Sequence record: SRR31156797_13057
DNA length: 40,960 bases
Reading direction: 5' to 3' (one strand)
The notes under the pieces were generated by a model. It was not told where the DNA came from, did no database searches, and was given only the letters and a program-made list of their open reading frames with translations. Positions 12,931 to 39,255 of this stretch are shown here, one piece after another. A program made the translations under genes and the position numbers. Each line of letters begins with the position of its first letter. Position 1 is the first letter of the stretch.

Positions 12931-13329
12931 ATGAAAAAGAACAGACAAACTCAATCCAAACAAGGATTAGCAGCCATAGAAATGGCCATGTTGTTCCCGA
13001 TCTTCATGATGTTACTGGTCGGCGTCATGGATACTGGTCGATTATACTGGACACAAAGTGTTGTCCGTGACGCAGCCTTTGAAGGTGCTCGTACAGCCAT
13101 TCTTCACGAAAGCACCACCAGCCAAATCGAATCGGTTGTTACCGAAGAACTGGTGTCAGGCGGGATTAACCAGTCTTCATCTGTCGTGATTAGCGACCGC
13201 CAGGCGTCACAACCCGTTGAAGTCAAAGTTTCTGTCCCCTTCGAGTTTTATGTCATCGACAACCTGCTTCCATCTCTGGAAGGGCCGACCAACATTTCGG
13301 CTGCGGCTGTCATGATTCATGAGAGGTAA
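12931..13329 (+). CDS. TadE-family Flp pilus pseudopilin
   Basis: Basic leader then QG-LAAIEMAMLFP hydrophobic helix; AAFEGAR motif. AGGAG RBS. Confidence 0.85.
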   Translation: MKKNRQTQSKQGLAAIEMAMLFPIFMMLLVGVMDTGRLYWTQSVVRDAAFEGARTAILHESTTSQIESVVTEELVSGGINQSSSVVISDRQASQPVEVKVSVPFEFYVIDNLLPSLEGPTNISAAAVMIHER

Positions 13330-13331
13330 CC

Positions 13332-13721
13332 ATGCGCAAAAATGATACAAAGAAACAAGGCGCCATGGCCCTTGAATTCGCCCTTCTTATGTCACTCTTA
13401 CTCATCCCGCTAATTACAGGCATGTGGGATGCGTCTCAATTAATAGACATGAATCAGATTTTAACCCGCGCAGCAAGAGAAGGCGTAGTCATGGCCTCAC
13501 GTGGGGATGATCCTGTTGCCCAAGTGCAGGCCTTTGTCGAATCGGCAGGACTTGAATCAAACAACCTTGTCGTGGAAATAGAGCTCGGACAGGATGACCC
13601 TGAACTCGGTCAGGAAATTGCCGTAAGGCTGAATTACAATCTCTCTGGAAGCACCGTACTTCCATGGGAAGAACTCATGCCGGACGGCATCTCCATAGTT
13701 GCCTACGCCAAAGTGGAGTGA
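13332..13721 (+). CDS. TadE/TadF-family Flp pilus pseudopilin
   Basis: QG-AMALEFALL prepilin-like motif and AAREG motif. Confidence 0.85.
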   Translation: MRKNDTKKQGAMALEFALLMSLLLIPLITGMWDASQLIDMNQILTRAAREGVVMASRGDDPVAQVQAFVESAGLESNNLVVEIELGQDDPELGQEIAVRLNYNLSGSTVLPWEELMPDGISIVAYAKVE

Positions 13722-13728
13722 TGCCATT

Positions 13729-14901
13729 ATGACCATTTTACGTAATCTTTTTTCCCAACAACACGGCGTGGCCAGCATTCTCGTCGGTATGTGCATGGCC
13801 GCCTTGATGGGGATGTGTGCCTTGGCTGTAGATGTAGGTCGAATCTATATCAAACGTGGCGCAATTCAGACAGCTGCCGATGCCGGAGCACTAGCCGGAG
13901 CCAATTCTCTTATGGCCGAAGGAAGCGACATAGAAAAACTCAGGGCCATTGTCACAAAATACGCGGAACGAAACCTGACAGCGACGGACATTCCGAACGA
14001 ATCAGTGACGCCGACAGACATCGTTTTCCTGAGAGATGGCGTGCCTGATGAGGACCAGCCTAATCAAGTCGAAGTCACCGTCACTCTCAATGAAGCCCAA
14101 GGCAATCCATTCCCACTGTATTTTGGTAAGGCTATAGGTATTCCCTTCGCAAACATTCAAGTCGTAGCCCGTGCAGGTATCGTCGGCATCTGCTCCAGCA
14201 AATGCATCAAACCTTTTGTTGTTCCCACCAAATTTACATGGAACGATTCGGCTGCCCCTGCCACCAAGTACTACGAAAACGACAGGATGGACGTGGAAAG
14301 CGTTCAGGAACTCGACTCGGTAGAAGTCCTCGGATACACTCAGGACGACGTCGGCACCCAGATCATTATCAAACCGGGCGACCCAAGCTTGGCCATCGCT
14401 CCCGGGCAGTACAATCTTATAGATTTGCCACCCATCAACAAAGGCAATCCGACAACGGGTGCGGCTATGATCAAAGAAAACATTGAAGGGTGTACCGGCT
14501 CCAACAGTGAATATCCTGTTGAACCAGGCGACGAATTGTTGATCGAACCCGGCAACTCGGCTGGCCCGGTCAAAGCCGGAACCAACAACCTCATTGGACT
14601 TGATCCCTACGCGGCATGGGACACATCAACTAACTCCATTGAAGGCAGCTCCTTTAGTGATCCTCTCGACAGTCCTCGCGTCGCCATCATCTCCTTCTAT
14701 GACCCTCGCTACCCGCCAACAGGCGGTAGAAATGTCATTACAGTCTATGAGCTTGGTGCCTTTTTCATCGAGAATGTCGACAGCAGTGGCAATGTGACAG
14801 CTCGATTCATGAATACTGTAGCGGTTGATCCAGAACCAGGGGGTTCTTCGGACTGTCTTCTACGCATAAGCCGACTCATGCTCGACTCCAGTCGACAATA
14901 G
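13729..14901 (+). CDS. TadG-family Flp pilus assembly/tip protein
   Basis: HG-VASILVG..., ALAVDVGRIY, IQTAADAGALAGA (TadG N-terminal motif), followed by a Cys-containing C-terminal region. GGAG RBS before 13729. Confidence 0.82.
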   Translation: MTILRNLFSQQHGVASILVGMCMAALMGMCALAVDVGRIYIKRGAIQTAADAGALAGANSLMAEGSDIEKLRAIVTKYAERNLTATDIPNESVTPTDIVFLRDGVPDEDQPNQVEVTVTLNEAQGNPFPLYFGKAIGIPFANIQVVARAGIVGICSSKCIKPFVVPTKFTWNDSAAPATKYYENDRMDVESVQELDSVEVLGYTQDDVGTQIIIKPGDPSLAIAPGQYNLIDLPPINKGNPTTGAAMIKENIEGCTGSNSEYPVEPGDELLIEPGNSAGPVKAGTNNLIGLDPYAAWDTSTNSIEGSSFSDPLDSPRVAIISFYDPRYPPTGGRNVITVYELGAFFIENVDSSGNVTARFMNTVAVDPEPGGSSDCLLRISRLMLDSSRQ

Positions 14902-26562: not shown

Positions 26563-29500
26563 ATGCTGTCATTTATCGATAAAGTCCCCTATGGCTCACC
26601 CAAAATGCGTCGTGTCGCCTTTTGGATTTTGACATCCTTCATTGCGTACACCCTATTCGGCTTCTTCGCTGTACCGCCTATATTGAAGAGTGTGATCATG
26701 GACCAAATCGATGATGGGTTGAAACGACCTGCCCAAATCGAAGAAATTTATTTCAACCCCTTCACCTACCATTTCGAAATCACCAACCTCAAGGTCAACA
26801 AGCTTGAGGGTGAAGGCGATCTTCTTTCCGTGGGTAAAGCCGTAGCTGCTCCGGGTATCTCCACACTCTGGAAGTTCGCCCCTGTCATAGCCTACCTGCA
26901 CCTCGACAATCTTCAGTTGGACATCACATTCTTCGGCAACGGGAAATATTCCATCTCAGACCTTCTTGGCACACCGGATGCCGTGGCCGAAGAAACCCCA
27001 GACACGCCGCCAGCAGAAACGGCCATTTTCCCCTTTGCGCTCTATGGGTTTGAAATGACCAATTCGAAAATCACTTTCGATGATCGACCACACAACAAGA
27101 AACACATCATTTCCGACCTCTTCCTTCGTGTTCCCTTCACCTCATCTTTTACGAGCATGAAGAAAGAATTTACCCAACCTAAATTCACCGCGGTAATCAA
27201 TGGCGATCCAGTCGAACTGAAAGGCAGGACACTTCCTTTTGACGAAACCCTGCTCACAGAATTTGAACTTGGGGCCGTGGACATTGATCTCAATCAATAC
27301 TGGCAATATGTACCAATCAAAACACCGCTTCAACTGAAAGACGGCAAATTCACCTCGGATATTTCTCTCTTTTTTGAACGGCCTGATGCGCAACGACTCA
27401 ATCTATTCCTCGGTGGTGGTGGCAAGCTGACCAATATGGAATTGACTGATCCCAACGAGAAATCAGTGCTCTCGGTAAAAGAACTCGCTTTTGAAATGGA
27501 ACGGTTTTCTTTGGGAGACCGGGCCTTAATCCTCACCAGCATAAGCTTGGAGAACCCCTACTTCAAAGTTATCCGCAACAAAGACAACAGTATCAATTGG
27601 GCGCACTATTTCCCCGGCTCAAAGATGAGTGAAGCCGGCCCAAAGGTCAAAACCGAATCAGAAACGGATTCAGCCTTTGTTCTGGATATTCGAAAAATAG
27701 ATATCATTGAAGGCGCTGTTGATTGGGAAGACCGCCATGTAAAAAACGGCTTTAAACGAACTTTTGCTCCTCTCTCGTTCACAGGAACGGAAATCACAAC
27801 AGCAGGAGACAGGCCTAGTCACATAAAAGCTACGGCAGGCAAGGCTCAGGGTATCATAACAATAGAAGGCATAGCCACAGTACAACCCCTTGCAGCCTCC
27901 CTTTCTGTGACCGGAAAGAATCTCCCGATCCCGGCTTACAAATCCTATATCAATCATGCGCAACCACTCATTGTGGACACAGGTGTTGCAGGCTTTTCGG
28001 CTAACATCGACTTTAAAATGGAAGATGACACCCCTTCTCTGGATGTCACAGAAGGGACAGCCTCGTTGCGAGATATTTCTATCCGCAAACCGGATGCCAA
28101 GAAGCCAAGTCTCGGACTGACTGCATTGGATGTATCCGGTGCTGCCATGAGCCTGAAAAACAAGACTGTGACCGTGGCGGACGTCACGATTACAGGCCCA
28201 TTTGCCAAAGTCGTCATGGGAAAAGATGGTCAACTTGATCTGGGCAAACTTCTAATAAAAGAAGAAGAGATACTGAGTAAGACAGAGGTCGTCGAAACTG
28301 TAGAAAAAACCTGGGCCGGAGGATGGCATGCAGAATTCGGACGCATTCTTGTTAAAGATGGTGCTGCCGATTTTCTGAATCAATCACTCAAACATCCGGC
28401 CAATCTGGGTATCAAAGAATTCACATTGGACCTGCAAGCCCTTTCTACACAAAAGAATGCCACCATGCCTTATTCTCTGAGCGGGACATGGACAGGCAAT
28501 GGATCATTTTCAGGACAGGGAAAAGCCTCCATTACCCCACTCTGGTCCGACGGAACCATTCGCGTCAACGGCGTTGGGCTACGGCCATTTGATGGTTATC
28601 TGGCTGAATACACGGACCTGCTCATTGCCAAGGGCGCGGCTTTTGCCAACCTGAAATATTCATTCAAAGGTGGCAAAAAGCCAAAACTCACCATCACAGG
28701 GGATACCGCACTCGGCGCAGTCTCCATCAAAGACACCCTGAGCAAAAATGAAGTGGCTGGCATCAATAAATTTGAAATAAATTCAATAGCCTTTGCCAAC
28801 GAACCGAACACGCTTTCCATCGGCGAAATCAAACTGAACGAACCTCGCGGACTCATTCATTTCGATGAAAAAGGACGCATGAACATTCTACGAGTCTTGC
28901 GTGTTCCCCAACCACCGCCAGTAGTGGAAGGGGAAAAGGCTGAACAAACCACCCCCAAAACATTACCGGGAAAAGCCACTCAACCTGCGGAAAACATAAA
29001 AGAGACGCCGTTTTTCCAATCCGTCAAAATCGGAAAAATCAACATGACCAAGGGCGCTGTTGCTTTTAAAGATGAAAGTGTACAGCCGGACTTCTCCACC
29101 GAGTTAACCGGCATGAACCTCCGCCTTGCAGATATCGACCAATCGCCTGAAGCAAGGCCCAAGATGGAGTTCAAAGCCAACATAGGCCCCACCCCCATGT
29201 CGATTTCGGGTGTGGTCAACCCGATCATTTCGCCGATTTATTCGGACCTGGCAATTTCCATCAACGGCATGGAACTCGTGCCACTCACACCATACACACT
29301 CAAAAGCCTTGCCTATCCCATTGAAAAAGGACGGCTTTATGCGGATGTGACCTTCAAAGCAGAAAACTGGGTGCTAAACGCTGAAAACAAATTCTACATT
29401 GAACAACTTGTACTGGGCGCCAAGGATAAACGTCCTGATGCCCCCAACGTCCCTGTAGAGTTCGGACTGTCTCTGCTTCAGGATGGCAACGGCAACATGG

Positions 29501-30210
29501 AGTTGAACCTGCCCATCCGTGGTGAACTGAACGACCCGGATTTCCGCATCGGCGGTATTGTATTCAAGGCCATTGTTAGTCTGTTATTCAAGGCTCTGGC
29601 ATCACCATTCACCTTGATCGGCTCCATGTTCGGCGGTGGTGAAAATATGGATTTCGTCGTCTTTGAACCCGGCAGACACGAATTGGATACAGGCGGAATT
29701 GAAAAAATGGAGACCATAATCAAGGCATTAAGCGAACGTGAGAAACTTACATTGGAAGTGGACGGCGTCATTGATCCGATCGCAGACAAAACCGGCCTTA
29801 TTGAGGTCATTTTCGAAGACAAAATCAAACAACAAAAATACGACACGTTGTCCCGATCTGAACAGGCAGAAAAGAACGTGGCAGACATGGTCATAGCCCC
29901 TGAAGAATATGAAGACCTTCTGTTTGAAGCGTATGCCGACGAACCGGACGAAGAAGATATCAAACCGACCACGCTCTTCATGACCGACCGACAGCCTGTC
30001 GATGTCATGGAGAAATTCATTCGTGACCACATAATAATCACCGATGAACTACTCCATGAACTCGCCATGGCCCGAGCCAACACCGTTAAAGGGTACATCA
30101 TTGAAAAACAGCCGGCCTTGAAAGAACGCGTCTTTCTTCTCGACCGAAAGGACGATGCCAAAGGGAAAACAGGCGTCCCGGCTCACAGGGCAGACCTCGG
30201 CATCAATTAA
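26563..30210 (+). CDS. DUF748 (AsmA-like) protein with C-terminal OmpA-like region
   Basis: N-terminal TM (YTLFGFFAVPPI), IYFNPFT, repeated beta-rich units, LSLLQDGNG.MELNLPI.G.L.DPDF, KALASPF, LAMARANTVK. Confidence 0.85.
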   Translation: MLSFIDKVPYGSPKMRRVAFWILTSFIAYTLFGFFAVPPILKSVIMDQIDDGLKRPAQIEEIYFNPFTYHFEITNLKVNKLEGEGDLLSVGKAVAAPGISTLWKFAPVIAYLHLDNLQLDITFFGNGKYSISDLLGTPDAVAEETPDTPPAETAIFPFALYGFEMTNSKITFDDRPHNKKHIISDLFLRVPFTSSFTSMKKEFTQPKFTAVINGDPVELKGRTLPFDETLLTEFELGAVDIDLNQYWQYVPIKTPLQLKDGKFTSDISLFFERPDAQRLNLFLGGGGKLTNMELTDPNEKSVLSVKELAFEMERFSLGDRALILTSISLENPYFKVIRNKDNSINWAHYFPGSKMSEAGPKVKTESETDSAFVLDIRKIDIIEGAVDWEDRHVKNGFKRTFAPLSFTGTEITTAGDRPSHIKATAGKAQGIITIEGIATVQPLAASLSVTGKNLPIPAYKSYINHAQPLIVDTGVAGFSANIDFKMEDDTPSLDVTEGTASLRDISIRKPDAKKPSLGLTALDVSGAAMSLKNKTVTVADVTITGPFAKVVMGKDGQLDLGKLLIKEEEILSKTEVVETVEKTWAGGWHAEFGRILVKDGAADFLNQSLKHPANLGIKEFTLDLQALSTQKNATMPYSLSGTWTGNGSFSGQGKASITPLWSDGTIRVNGVGLRPFDGYLAEYTDLLIAKGAAFANLKYSFKGGKKPKLTITGDTALGAVSIKDTLSKNEVAGINKFEINSIAFANEPNTLSIGEIKLNEPRGLIHFDEKGRMNILRVLRVPQPPPVVEGEKAEQTTPKTLPGKATQPAENIKETPFFQSVKIGKINMTKGAVAFKDESVQPDFSTELTGMNLRLADIDQSPEARPKMEFKANIGPTPMSISGVVNPIISPIYSDLAISINGMELVPLTPYTLKSLAYPIEKGRLYADVTFKAENWVLNAENKFYIEQLVLGAKDKRPDAPNVPVEFGLSLLQDGNGNMELNLPIRGELNDPDFRIGGIVFKAIVSLLFKALASPFTLIGSMFGGGENMDFVVFEPGRHELDTGGIEKMETIIKALSEREKLTLEVDGVIDPIADKTGLIEVIFEDKIKQQKYDTLSRSEQAEKNVADMVIAPEEYEDLLFEAYADEPDEEDIKPTTLFMTDRQPVDVMEKFIRDHIIITDELLHELAMARANTVKGYIIEKQPALKERVFLLDRKDDAKGKTGVPAHRADLGIN

Positions 30211-34812: not shown

Positions 34813-35595
34813 TTACACAACCTTCCGATAGGACCACCATATCCAACCAACACCGAAAAGGATCATGGGCATACACAACAACTGCCCCATGGACATCCAG
34901 TTTAAGGCGATAAAACCGAGATGCCTGTCAGGTTCGCGCGCGAATTCCACAAGGAAGCGAAAACACCCGTAACCGAGCAGAAACAACGCCCCAACGCATC
35001 CCTTGGGACGCGGCTTGGAAGAATACCACCAGACCACAGCAAAAAGGACGAGTCCTTCGAGAGCTGCTTCATAAAGTTGTGAAGGGTGACGAGGCAATCC
35101 TCCCGCGCCGGGAAAAGGCATGGCCCAAGGCAAATCTGTATAGCGGCCCCACAATTCAGCATTAATGAAATTACCGATACGTCCAAAGAAAAGCCCGGGA
35201 GGCACCAATGGGGACACGAAATCACCCAATTCCATAAAGGTCATGTTATTGGCGCGACCAAACAACCATATGGCCACCAGCACACCAAGCATACCGCCAT
35301 GAAATGACATACCGCCTTCCCATACCGCAAAAATCTTGAGTGGGTTGGAAAAATAGAAACTCGCGTTGTAAAACAAAACATAACCGATACGCCCACCGAG
35401 CACGACACCAAGTATGGCCCAAGTGATAAAATCATCCATGAGCTTGGGCGTCATTTTGTTCCACGGTTTGGTCGCTCTGTATCGACCGAGCAGCCAGCCG
35501 GACAGGATGCCGAAGACATACATCATGCCATACCAGCGAAGCTCAAGCGGCCCTATGGACACCATGGTCGGATCGAATTGTGGATATTCCAGCAT
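34813..35595 (-). CDS. lgt: Prolipoprotein diacylglyceryl transferase
   Basis: RWYGMMY, LGGRIGYVLFY, WEGGMSFHGG, GRIGNFINAELWGR, RHPSQLYE, RFLVEFAREPD, SMGQ. GGAGAG RBS before 35595. Confidence 0.97.
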   Translation of the reverse strand: MLEYPQFDPTMVSIGPLELRWYGMMYVFGILSGWLLGRYRATKPWNKMTPKLMDDFITWAILGVVLGGRIGYVLFYNASFYFSNPLKIFAVWEGGMSFHGGMLGVLVAIWLFGRANNMTFMELGDFVSPLVPPGLFFGRIGNFINAELWGRYTDLPWAMPFPGAGGLPRHPSQLYEAALEGLVLFAVVWWYSSKPRPKGCVGALFLLGYGCFRFLVEFAREPDRHLGFIALNWMSMGQLLCMPMILFGVGWIWWSYRKVV

Positions 35596-35714
35596 AAATG
35601 TGCTCTCCGTATGCGGTATGTCTCTTTGTTTTCTTCTGAAATTCAGGTACACTCGCGTGCAATCGACAGGGTGTCTCTTTTTTTATCGCCCCGTCAACCC
35701 AAAAGCGTACCACC

Positions 35715-36461
35715 ATGGAAAAGCCTCAGGAACTTGATATACTGGAGATGCCCGTCGAGGGATTGGCCGCCTATTGGTTGTCCATTAAAAAGATAATGGA
35801 TGCCAAAAAAGGCCGTGCCATTTTGGATGAAGAGATCGCCAACACTGTTGAGCCGTTCATTCTGCATCTGCTTGAAACGGCATTTTCCAATCTCGACATT
35901 CCATTAATCCGCCGTCTGACCCAGGCCAAACGAGAAATTCAGCTCGACGATTATCGCACTAAAATAGATCTTATGCGTCTCGCCATATATGCCATCGCAT
36001 CCGGCGAGAATCCACGTATAACATTGGTACGGATGGATTCCAAATTCGCCCACCCGCTCATGACCGAAGACCGAGCTTTCGACATGGCCACCGCCATGTT
36101 TGACGCCATCAGGCCAAGAGGCGTCAATCTCGACACACTGTTGTCCGTGGATCACAAGCTCCAAGCTGACAGATTGTTGGTGAAGTTGCTGTTCTTTGTC
36201 ATGTTCGCACGGCGCGAAGGCCGACAAAATCTGGAACAATTCATTCCACACACGGGGTCTCGATTCTTTTCCGAAGGCGTGTCTCTGGCCATCGACAATT
36301 TCGAAGCGGACTTTCTGACCTACCACATGAAAGGTATCAGAGATCGAGTGCTGGTGGAAACAGGACGCAAGATGGACATGGCCATGGAAATGGCCCTCGC
36401 AATACGTAACAAATATGCTTACGACGACATTTTCCGCATAGCCAGGGCGTATATGCCCTGA
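35715..36461 (+). CDS. Soluble hypothetical protein resembling two tandem MotA/PomA cytoplasmic domains without TM helices
   Basis: Repeat 1: KKGRAILDEE...EPFILHLLE...KIDLMRLAIYAIASGENPRI. Repeat 2: ARREGRQNLE...RFFSEGVSLAIDN...KMDMAMEMALAI. No membrane-length hydrophobic segment. The ORF itself is well supported; the MotA resemblance is by eye. Confidence 0.65.
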   Translation: MEKPQELDILEMPVEGLAAYWLSIKKIMDAKKGRAILDEEIANTVEPFILHLLETAFSNLDIPLIRRLTQAKREIQLDDYRTKIDLMRLAIYAIASGENPRITLVRMDSKFAHPLMTEDRAFDMATAMFDAIRPRGVNLDTLLSVDHKLQADRLLVKLLFFVMFARREGRQNLEQFIPHTGSRFFSEGVSLAIDNFEADFLTYHMKGIRDRVLVETGRKMDMAMEMALAIRNKYAYDDIFRIARAYMP

Positions 36462-36478: not shown

Positions 36479-37141
36479 ATGCATAGAATTACCATAATCA
36501 CTCTGACTGCAATCCTGTTGTTTGCCACCGTTGCCTCAGCACAGGGCTGGAGGTCGGTCCAGAACGGTGACAAAAATTTCGAACGCGCATGGCGTACCTA
36601 CACAACCCAACAGACAGCCAAGGCTGAAGGGTATTTTGTCAGGGCGGCAGATGCATATGGCGACGCCCTCAAAGCTGATCCTCCGAGCAGAACAACCCGC
36701 TTCCCTTCTACTCTGGCCAAAGCTGGCATCTCCTTTTATTCTGCAAAGCGCTATCAGGAATGCATAGACACCATGAAAATCACACTGACCAGAGACAAGC
36801 GCATGTGGGAACCCGCCCTCTATACGGCCTTGTCATACGCCCGGCTTGGAGATTCCGAAAACACGGTCAAGACATTACAAACCTTTGTCACAGCCCTTTC
36901 CTCCCAACGAATCATAAGCGATGCCGCATCATTGCAAATCAAATCTTTGGAAACGGGTAAGACAACTCTCGACGACGTGGCTGACACGCTGGATGCCGCC
37001 ACACAAAAACAGTTCATTGAAAACATCAGCCGAAACAACAGTCCCAGAGATGTTGGCCTGACCGCCGAACGCTGCAACGGCGCATACTGGTGGCGCAGAA
37101 ACATGGCGCCATGTCACTCTTCAGGCATCGTGTCTGATTAA
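36479..37141 (+). CDS. Secreted TPR-like helical protein
   Basis: Signal peptide ..VASA|Q, TPR-like helices (LAKAGISFY..KRYQECI; PALYTALSYARLG), C-terminal C..YWWR...C. AAGGAG RBS. Confidence 0.7.
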   Translation: MHRITIITLTAILLFATVASAQGWRSVQNGDKNFERAWRTYTTQQTAKAEGYFVRAADAYGDALKADPPSRTTRFPSTLAKAGISFYSAKRYQECIDTMKITLTRDKRMWEPALYTALSYARLGDSENTVKTLQTFVTALSSQRIISDAASLQIKSLETGKTTLDDVADTLDAATQKQFIENISRNNSPRDVGLTAERCNGAYWWRRNMAPCHSSGIVSD

Positions 37142-38040: not shown

Positions 38041-39255
38041 ATGAAACAGCAAAATAGCCCCGCCCCGGACACCACCAAAAGTTCTCAGGCTGTCCATGGG
38101 TTGACCTATCAATTCAGCCCCAAGGTTGTCGTCATTGCCGGCCCCCCTGCTGGCGGGAAAAGTTATGCGGCCAAACTCCTTGCCGAGAATTACGGCTATG
38201 CATTGTTACGATTGGATGCCATCACACCACTGGTTGCCAACAAATACGGAGGCGATATTGAAACAGTTCGCCAGCCTGGTACTTATCAGGACTTCAAGGA
38301 TCACTTTGCCCAGCTCCTAAGAAGAAATCGGTATCAAAATATTGTTCTTGAAGGCTGTCGTATGAGCCACCCTCATATCCATCAAGGATTTATGGATGCT
38401 TTGCACGACATATATTCGCCGTATACCATTGTTCAAAATTTCTATCTAAATCCTTCCAGAGAAGTTCGCATGGAGCGATTCCTCCTGCGTAAAATCCGAC
38501 AGGCCAAACAGGCAATCAAGGGTGGCACCCCAAACGCGAACACCTCGCAGGTTTTTTGCGACATGCTGGAGCCAGTCCTCCCCTCTTTCTCCGAGATCGA
38601 AGATTCCGAGGCCATCACCCAATGGGCTATCGATAATCAGGATGTTATCCACCCCGGAGTCCCCGAGAATGATCGAAACGTTTTCAAAACGGTTGCCGAG
38701 GCCAAATCCTTCAATCCTTTTTATCAGACAATTGAGTACAACGGACGCACTCTTGTTCCCGGTTTTACCCTCTCTCCACTGGCTTGGCAGAACATCCTCA
38801 AGCTCGGCGTTAATTTTCAGGGCAAAAGTCTGTGCGACTATGGTTGTATGCACGGCTATTACACGTTCAAGGCTGAGGAAGCGGGTGCGATGGGTGTTGG
38901 CGTAGATATGGATCAAGGGGCTGTTGACTTGTCCAACTATCTGGCTTCGGTCAAGCAGTCGGACTGCCATTTCATGGTTTACGACATCACCACTCCACTC
39001 AACCAGAAGTACGACATCATTCTCGCTTTAAACGTCTTGCATAGGACGGGGAAGTTCGAACTGACCACTGAAATCATGTTCGAACACTGCAATGAATGCA
39101 TCCTCGAGGTGGGAGAATCGCAGTTACCGATCATCATCGGTGAAGGCACCCGGCAGGGATTCAAACTCAAGCGAAATATTCCGTCCCATAGACAACAGTC
39201 CTGCATCGGACCTCGAAGAGTGTTACACATGGTTCGCCAAGAGGGTAGGAAGTGA
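38041..39255 (+). CDS. Fusion of P-loop (NMP-kinase-like) domain and class I SAM-dependent methyltransferase
   Basis: N-terminal [28 protein letters not shown] lid; C-terminal [29 protein letters not shown]. Confidence 0.78.

Follow-up and report, generated by a model that had tools for sequence, protein, structure and literature searches.

The window analyzed here is a 40,960-nucleotide (nt) stretch of DNA from sequence record SRR31156797_13057. At 35715..36461 on the + strand, the listing of its open reading frames (ORFs) gives a frame of 248 amino acids (aa) and a stop. The product is very probably a soluble tandem derived from the flagellar stator protein MotA, a reading to which we give a probability of roughly 0.9. 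The MotA-derived module, taken from the cytoplasmic domain that faces the rotor, consists of the loop between transmembrane helices 2 and 3 (TM2-TM3) joined to the helix that follows TM4; the TM1-TM2 part and the TM3-TM4 hairpin are absent, and the module is duplicated in tandem. The protein thus presents a known domain in a new architecture, soluble and duplicated, and founds an order-wide family. Its function is a more tentative matter. That it acts on the rotor protein FliG as a stator mimic is a proposal that we would put at about 0.4.

Compared with six orthologues, the 248-aa ORF shows a non-synonymous difference (pN) of 0.08-0.17 vs. a synonymous difference (pS) of 0.66-0.80, which is saturated; dN/dS, where computable, is 0.04-0.08. 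By this substitution pattern the ORF is a genuine gene on which purifying selection is strong. A protein 100% identical to its product is encoded in the nearest genome, G001. The product contains 35 Lys and Arg and 37 Asp and Glu residues. Its highest 19-residue Kyte-Doolittle mean is 1.13, well below what a membrane helix requires, in agreement with an earlier note on this DNA that had seen no hydrophobic stretch of transmembrane length. Since it has no transmembrane helix, the protein has no ion channel and no MotB partner. A motif search of the translation placed ARREGRQNLE at residues 165-174 (36207-36236), RFFSEGVSLAIDN from residue 183 onward (36261-36299), AIASGENPRI at residues 93-102 (GENPRI at 36003-36020), and AKKGRAILD from residue 30 onward, all on the + strand and all where they had first been read.

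Homology to the MotA loop is carried by the second half of the protein. A family profile (A1) was built from 40 members and searched against a set of 177,635 PDB sequences. Ten sequences matched at E ≤ 10. Nine of these are MotA/PomA (E 3.9e-6 to 1.3e-4), and the tenth is unrelated (E 1.1). In eight of the nine, family residues ~147-217 fall on MotA 68-140, the cytoplasmic TM2-TM3 loop known as the torque-generating interface; in the ninth (6ykm), family residues 87-216 fall on MotA 11-136. Comparison by hhalign with an alignment of 30 MotA sequences from genomes of the phylum paired family residues 130-230 with MotA 54-146 (probability 96.2%, E 2.3e-9). The C-terminal half scored 67.9 against MotA, vs. 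a mean of 12.7 (standard deviation, sd, 2.6; maximum 19.8) over 60 column shuffles. The NCBIfam models gave only sub-threshold MotA matches, the one to NF005997 (E 9e-4) reaching 18.3 bits vs. a cut-off of 340 and aligning residues 141-203 with model positions 65-127. Pfam assigned no family to the 248-aa protein at E ≤ 1, FliG_C (PF01706) included, and gave nothing meaningful for all 40 members, with no MotA_ExbB (PF01618) match in any of them. The core of repeat 2 defined by the profile, hhalign and shuffle comparisons (residues 147-217; 36153..36365, + strand) includes ARREG (36207-36221) and the AIDN/DG motif that follows. The ARREG...DG loop of MotA is therefore present in repeat 2; repeat 1 shows the loop likeness weakly. 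The suggestion that half 2 is a homolog of the MotA TM2-TM3 loop was borne out by these comparisons, and the match to the MotA cytoplasmic domain, by profile and by fold, the lack of which the earlier note had named as grounds for giving up its proposal, is significant.

The internal duplication that had been suspected was also recovered. Aligning the N-terminal and C-terminal halves of the family with hhalign paired residues 27-97 with 163-233 (probability 87%, E 3.9e-6) at a score of 37.9, vs. a mean of 11.8 (sd 1.9, maximum 16.8) for 60 column shuffles. Over 98 positions, the two repeat consensus sequences are identical at 25 and similar at 17, and the helix lengths of the predicted model run in parallel (17, 9, 10, 35, and 9 residues in half 1; 18, 10, 11, 34, and 10 in half 2). 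In this internal alignment repeat 1 (residues 14-108; 35754..36038, + strand) is a degenerate copy, laid out as three short helices, a 35-residue helix, GENPR, and a short helix. It had been described as degenerate in the loop yet retaining GENPR. Residues 85-113 aligned with MotA 216-244 at a score of 28.5, vs. a mean of 11.0 (sd 2.5, maximum 19.6) for 80 shuffles, whereas the loop match of residues 24-66 to MotA 80-122 was weak (22.8 vs. a shuffle maximum of 21.1). A BLASTP alignment likewise placed residues 90-109 on residues 223-242 of the organism's own MotA paralogue (45% identity, E 0.017). Both direct matches of half 1 to MotA fall in the register expected from the duplication. Residues 75-115 (35937..36059, + strand), comprising the end of the long helix, GENPR (36003-36017), and the next helix, are thus homologous to the post-TM4 segment, and the GxNPR helix of MotA is present in repeat 1.

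The linker between the repeats (residues 109-146; 36039..36152, + strand) is modeled as two short helices and has no significant match to MotA (sub-query residues 116-150, P 0.26). By internal alignment, the long and last helices of repeat 2 (residues 198-245; 36306..36449, + strand) are the counterpart of the GENPR segment, without the motif. A second hhalign alignment joins loop and tail and skips MotA ~133-213, i.e., the TM3-TM4 hairpin (P 0.0024, probability 12%). The earlier note had the loop running directly into the post-TM4 helix in both repeats. The loop was found in half 2 and the tail in half 1, but the tail of half 2 was not significant. The twofold picture nevertheless holds, because the duplication links the half that shows the loop to the half that shows the tail.

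An AlphaFold2 model built from the 40-sequence alignment is all-helical, with a mean predicted local distance difference test (pLDDT) of 95.9 and a predicted template modeling score (pTM) of 0.91. The whole ORF (35715..36461) thus encodes an all-helical soluble protein that we treat here as the founding member of an order-restricted family. When the whole model was searched against PDB with Foldseek, nine of the first ten rows were MotA/PomA (E 0.05-0.5, probability 0.90-1.00, template modeling score 0.36-0.43), and nothing was found at E ≤ 0.001. After realignment with VIA-align the ten best rows were all MotA/PomA (Z 13.7-8.6; 137-167 residues; root mean square deviation 4.9-12.4 Å), with model residues 10/11-248 lying on residues 69/74-243/249 of the MotA/PomA chains. 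The next rows were designed helical proteins (Z 6.6 and 6.2), followed by ExbB/TolQ (Z ~5). Helical bundles can reach Z ~13 by chance, and the weight of the structural result lies in the gap between rows and in its agreement with the sequence alignments. A search of a viral structure library returned nothing (best probability 0.21). Half 1 folded alone gave a weaker model (pLDDT 82.7, pTM 0.62). Half 2 matched MotA by profile, but half 1 alone found no MotA by fold or by HMMER.

Residue conservation was counted over 40 family sequences. R166, which is the Arg in ARREG and corresponds to Escherichia coli R90, is Arg in 38/40 and Lys in 2/40. R167 is Arg or Lys in 35/40, G169 is Gly in 30/40, and D194 is Asp in 39/40. 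Within GENPR, the family's E98 is kept in 35/40, N99 in 34/40, P100 in 38/40, and R101 in 30/40. Both ARR-G and ENPR, whose conservation in homologs had been set as a check on the proposal, are therefore conserved. The E. coli R90/E98 numbering and the FliG contact partners follow PMC12505986.

A word-indexed search of 5.8 billion proteins returned 228 relatives at E ≤ 0.001. Among the 120 listed, lengths are 221-287 aa and nearly all are labeled "hypothetical protein"; the lone informative name, on one JGI record, is "flagellar motor component MotA." When the family profile was run against the 5.8-billion-protein set, the best 120 matches all came from the tandem family itself. An exhaustive phmmer search of 1.84 billion cluster representatives, which is blind to length, gave 57 matches (32 at E ≤ 1e-30), with no fused or longer form of the family among them. 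The longest was 318 aa, so the family protein stands alone and is not a fragment of a larger protein. In species-representative genomes we collected 68 loci from Pseudodesulfovibrio, Salidesulfovibrio, Maridesulfovibrio, Humidesulfovibrio, Desulfocurvus, Desulfobaculum, Halodesulfovibrio, and further Desulfovibrionales, and a few from metagenome-assembled genomes with phylum-level labels only. A strong family match was found in 181/301 genomes of the order. In a phylum-wide sample the family occurs in 3/251 genomes, all three within the order, and in 0/243 outside it. Judged by these searches, the gene is conserved in sulfate-reducing Desulfovibrio-type bacteria and founds a small family spread through one order. 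In the ESM Atlas the nearest unnamed clusters beyond the protein's own are from Spirochaetota (192 aa, 0.93; 143 aa, 0.90), and among named clusters FliG_C proteins of 309-367 aa come nearest. The latter score only 0.75-0.78 and are therefore leads only. These Spirochaetota and FliG_C clusters may be single-repeat or fused relatives.

The same 301 genomes of the order were scored for the family and for FliG. FliG was found in 276 of them (92%). Both were found in 179 genomes, the family without FliG in two, FliG without the family in 97, and neither in 23. Thus, 179/181 family-bearing genomes have FliG and 23/25 genomes without FliG lack the family, and the phylogenetic profile proposed as a check places the family almost only in FliG-bearing genomes. 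The two family-bearing genomes in which FliG was unmatched have completeness values of 85% and 83%, and both genes are present in a complete congener. A naive Fisher test of family vs. FliG gives an odds ratio of 21 (p 2e-8), ignoring kinship. More telling are joint losses of FliG and family within genera. In genus g70, one genome carries the pair and another, at 98% completeness, carries neither gene. Genus g99 has six genomes with both and two with neither (96% and 89% complete). Genus g114 has three with both, three with neither (94%, 92%, and 82% complete), and two further genomes with a partial FliG match only and no family gene. All 12 genomes at least 95% complete and without a FliG match, among the 20 listed, also lack the family.

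A further, independent hint of a link to FliG comes from the sequences of proteins outside the family. Extra FliG_C ORFs occur in other genomes of Desulfovibrionaceae, with 6, 4, 4, and 3 PF01706 matches in four genomes. Among them, membrane-free ORFs of 817 and 836 aa in G213 and G287 (L154 and L151) hold a MotA-loop-like module as well. The 817-aa ORF (L154:726-3179, G213) matches the family profile at residues 268-322 (E 1.7e-9) and the MotA profile at residues 250-307 (E 3.7e-10), carries Pfam FliG_C at residues 690-780 (E 1e-21), and has no membrane helix. The fusion of FliG_C to a MotA module in one predicted chain hints at a connection of the module to FliG. None of the FliG_C-fused forms was reached by single-sequence phmmer from the 248-aa protein among its 57 matches. 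In G001, FliG_C matches lie only within the flagellar fliG, and FliG would therefore be the sole partner of the FliG_C type there. Of the nine genes of the MotA_ExbB family in this genome, four are MotA-type stator paralogues, and the product of one of these four has 305 aa and an N-terminal extension.

Should the protein act on FliG, the known geometry of the motor offers a way. In the MotAB-FliG_C complex, as described in PMC11302681, FliG_C docks between adjacent MotA monomers, and two torque domains in one chain could therefore form such a grip. A tandem of two torque domains may be a minimal soluble unit able to grip the FliG torque helix. Once bound, the 248-aa protein might alter how stators engage, by braking the motor, by acting as a clutch, or by holding a place while the motor is assembled or stators are exchanged among the four sets. 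It would be an accessory factor and not a core part of the motor. The most specific version, in which a soluble copy of two neighboring MotA torque domains clamps the FliG torque helix and so sets the number or type of the four stators engaged, is possible, if doubtful.

The gene lies among few constant neighbors. Upstream and divergent is lgt in 54/68 loci (Desulfovibrionaceae-type), and glutamine cyclotransferase recurs in 32/68; the downstream side is variable. At six loci sampled from four further families within the order, the neighbors include an Xaa-Pro peptidase, hslVU, metK, Ech-type hydrogenase genes, and a sigma-54 activator. In the window, the next ORF begins 18 nt downstream (36479-37141, + strand) and encodes 220 aa with a signal-peptide-like N-terminus and weak TPR matches (E 0.0015). 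This secreted TPR-like gene is present in only 14/68 related loci and is therefore probably not a fixed partner. An alignment of 17 upstream regions at 80% consensus contains promoter-like conserved blocks, TTTGTTTT, a 16-nt spacer, and TACACT (35625..35653, + strand), a site that was not listed by a separate consensus scan. The same alignment contains a CGTCAA block at 35692..35697 (+ strand) in the presumed 5′ untranslated region. It also suggests that lgt starts at an internal Met near 35595 and not at the GTG at 35652. Elsewhere in the window, the ORF at 38041-39255 (+ strand) encodes 404 aa with a P-loop kinase-like N-terminus (weak AAA_18/AAA_33/Zeta_toxin-type matches) and an S-adenosylmethionine (SAM) methyltransferase domain, and a glycosyltransferase-like gene overlaps its stop. 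TadE/TadG-type Flp-pilus pseudopilin genes lie at 12931-14898 (+ strand), and 26563-30207 (+ strand) encodes a 1215-aa protein of the DUF748/AsmA family (E 1.6e-259).

Several results weigh against a FliG-directed tandem of MotA torque domains. Over the 40 sequences, position 174, which corresponds to E. coli E98, is variable (R11, E9, Q6, A5, D3, and others) and is acidic in 12/40; position 38 of repeat 1, which matches it, is acidic in 15/40, and E40, two residues past it, is Glu in 39/40. The R-x7-E spacing noted in repeat 2 does exist in the 248-aa sequence as R166/E174, but only the Arg is conserved in the family, and the charged pair of the R90/E98 type is lost through its Glu. The tail of repeat 2 (residues 211-248) falls on MotA 215-243 in the expected register without significance (8.7 vs. 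a shuffle mean of 10.7). Half 1 alone, compared with 48,161 chains, had no MotA among its best 50 rows (best Z 5.9, generic long helices) and none among 23 Foldseek rows, and the half-1 profile matched no PDB sequence at E ≤ 10. The alignment of the whole model spans MotA ~70-246, the TM3-TM4 hairpin included, so that the two long helices (~35 residues each) may, in the model, take the place of the hairpin's cytoplasmic extensions or simply imitate the hairpin itself. With respect to genomic context, a Pfam scan of 34 window ORFs (8 and 26) found no motB, OmpA-type, or flagellar gene, just as had been remarked from the sequence. No flagellar or chemotaxis gene was found adjoining the family gene at the 68 loci, where lgt and glutamine cyclotransferase are the only recurrent neighbors, and 0/27 neighboring ORFs scanned in the six loci of the four other families is flagellar. 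Sigma-28 and sigma-54 patterns had no match in 17/17 upstream regions. The distribution also argues against a core role. The family gene is absent from 97 FliG-bearing genomes of the order; in one genus FliG is present in 42/48 genomes and the family in 0/48, and in another FliG is present in 11/11 and the family in 4/11. The association is moreover weaker than the Fisher p suggests, FliG being so common (92% of the genomes) and related genomes not counting as independent.

These points might be met by a MotA-derived fold reused as a helical scaffold for a non-flagellar task, its co-occurrence with FliG reflecting shared ancestry and genome reduction. The conserved neighbors are housekeeping genes (lgt, glutamine cyclotransferase, Xaa-Pro peptidase, hslVU, and metK), the conserved upstream blocks resemble an ordinary sigma-70-type promoter, one third of the FliG-bearing genomes do without the family gene, and the FliG-contacting Glu is not kept. 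We consider this history somewhat unlikely nonetheless, because ancestry by itself hardly accounts for the three joint losses within genera, the 12 listed genomes at least 95% complete and without a FliG match all lack the family, and R166 and ENPR, which are hallmarks of MotA, stay conserved. Another possibility keeps the protein at the motor and has it bind the stator, not the rotor, docking on MotA to act as its chaperone, to cap it, or to select among the four stator sets. The MotA pentamer has its cytoplasmic domains packed side by side, and it is to this subunit-contacting part of MotA that the domain found here is homologous. G001 has four MotA paralogues to choose among, and co-occurrence with flagella fits binding to the stator as well as it fits binding to FliG. 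Soluble stator-binding factors are also known (PMC6686046, PMC11725899). However, the family gene adjoins no motAB pair, and the 817-aa fusion ties the module to FliG_C and not to MotA or MotB. Binding to the stator therefore seems unlikely to us.

The likeness to MotA could in principle be a chance resemblance of helical proteins, the family being unrelated to the stator. The Foldseek E-values of only 0.05-0.5, the lack of any Pfam family, an NCBIfam score of 18 bits vs. a cut-off of 340, the Z ~13 that helical bundles often reach by chance, and the failure of half 1 alone to match anything would all be expected under such a resemblance. Three independent sequence comparisons in the same register, with scores far above shuffles, would not, nor would MotA/PomA filling the top ten structural rows with a gap down to Z 6.6, nor the conservation of two separate MotA motifs, ARREG...DG and GENPR, in MotA order. 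We regard a chance resemblance as highly improbable. Descent from MotA thus underlies each of the readings that we take seriously, and action on FliG is the one that we favor.

If that reading is right, the protein would be the first motor regulator to work by copying the stator's own rotor-binding surface, and would provide a minimal soluble model, made by nature, of the contact that generates torque. Study of this contact is made difficult by the membrane complex that forms one of its sides; to solve the MotAB-FliG_C complex, an artificial fusion had to be used (PMC11302681). In a naturally occurring tandem of MotA torque domains that is soluble and folds well, the rotor-stator interface would become experimentally tractable. 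The tandem would also point to undescribed motor regulation in bacteria with several stator sets. The torque-generating interface has been described as a flagellum-specific innovation of MotA (PMC12505986), and the tandem would show that this interface can live alone, outside the membrane. No description of a membrane-free MotA domain protein was found in the full-text literature, as searched in main texts. The accessible text of the 2025 survey of MotAB diversity (PMC12505986) mentions no membrane-free MotA domain, and the words "soluble" and "standalone" occur in it 0 times.

Small cytoplasmic accessories at the rotor-stator interface have been found before. YcgR and MotI/DgrA are PilZ brakes, and EpsE is a clutch. 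FlgX, a PilZ tetramer unrelated to the 248-aa protein, stabilizes stator units in Campylobacter, which is the kind of action that binding to the stator would suggest for the protein. All four resemble it in the kind of role proposed, that of small cytoplasmic accessories at the rotor-stator interface that are dispensable for building the motor. YcgR, MotI/DgrA, FlgX, and EpsE have no sequence or domain relation to it, and none of them is stator-derived; regulation through a copy of the stator's surface for the rotor would follow a different principle. No PilZ or glycosyltransferase domain was matched by Pfam at E ≤ 1 in the 248-aa protein, and neither appeared among the structure-search rows.

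The closest comparison is with MotA/PomA itself (PF01618; NF005997; PDB 6ykm, 6ysl, 6ysf, 8ucs, and 8brd). The ARREG...DG loop and the GxNPR helix are homologous in the 248-aa protein, and the Arg matching E. coli R90 is kept in its family. In contrast, the protein has no transmembrane helices and no channel, the Glu matching E98 is not conserved, the module is tandem-duplicated, motB is not adjacent, and scores are far under the family cut-offs. By these features we classify it not as a member of the MotA family but as a derivative of one MotA domain. Like the 248-aa protein, the 817-aa FliG_C fusion contains a module that lacks membrane helices and is homologous to the cytoplasmic loop of MotA; unlike the fusion, the 248-aa protein has no FliG_C domain in the same chain. 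Its family is instead a compact tandem of conserved length, order-wide in distribution and co-occurring with flagella. Taken with the FliG_C-linked modules, it suggests a wider, unexplored family of soluble proteins of the rotor-stator interface.

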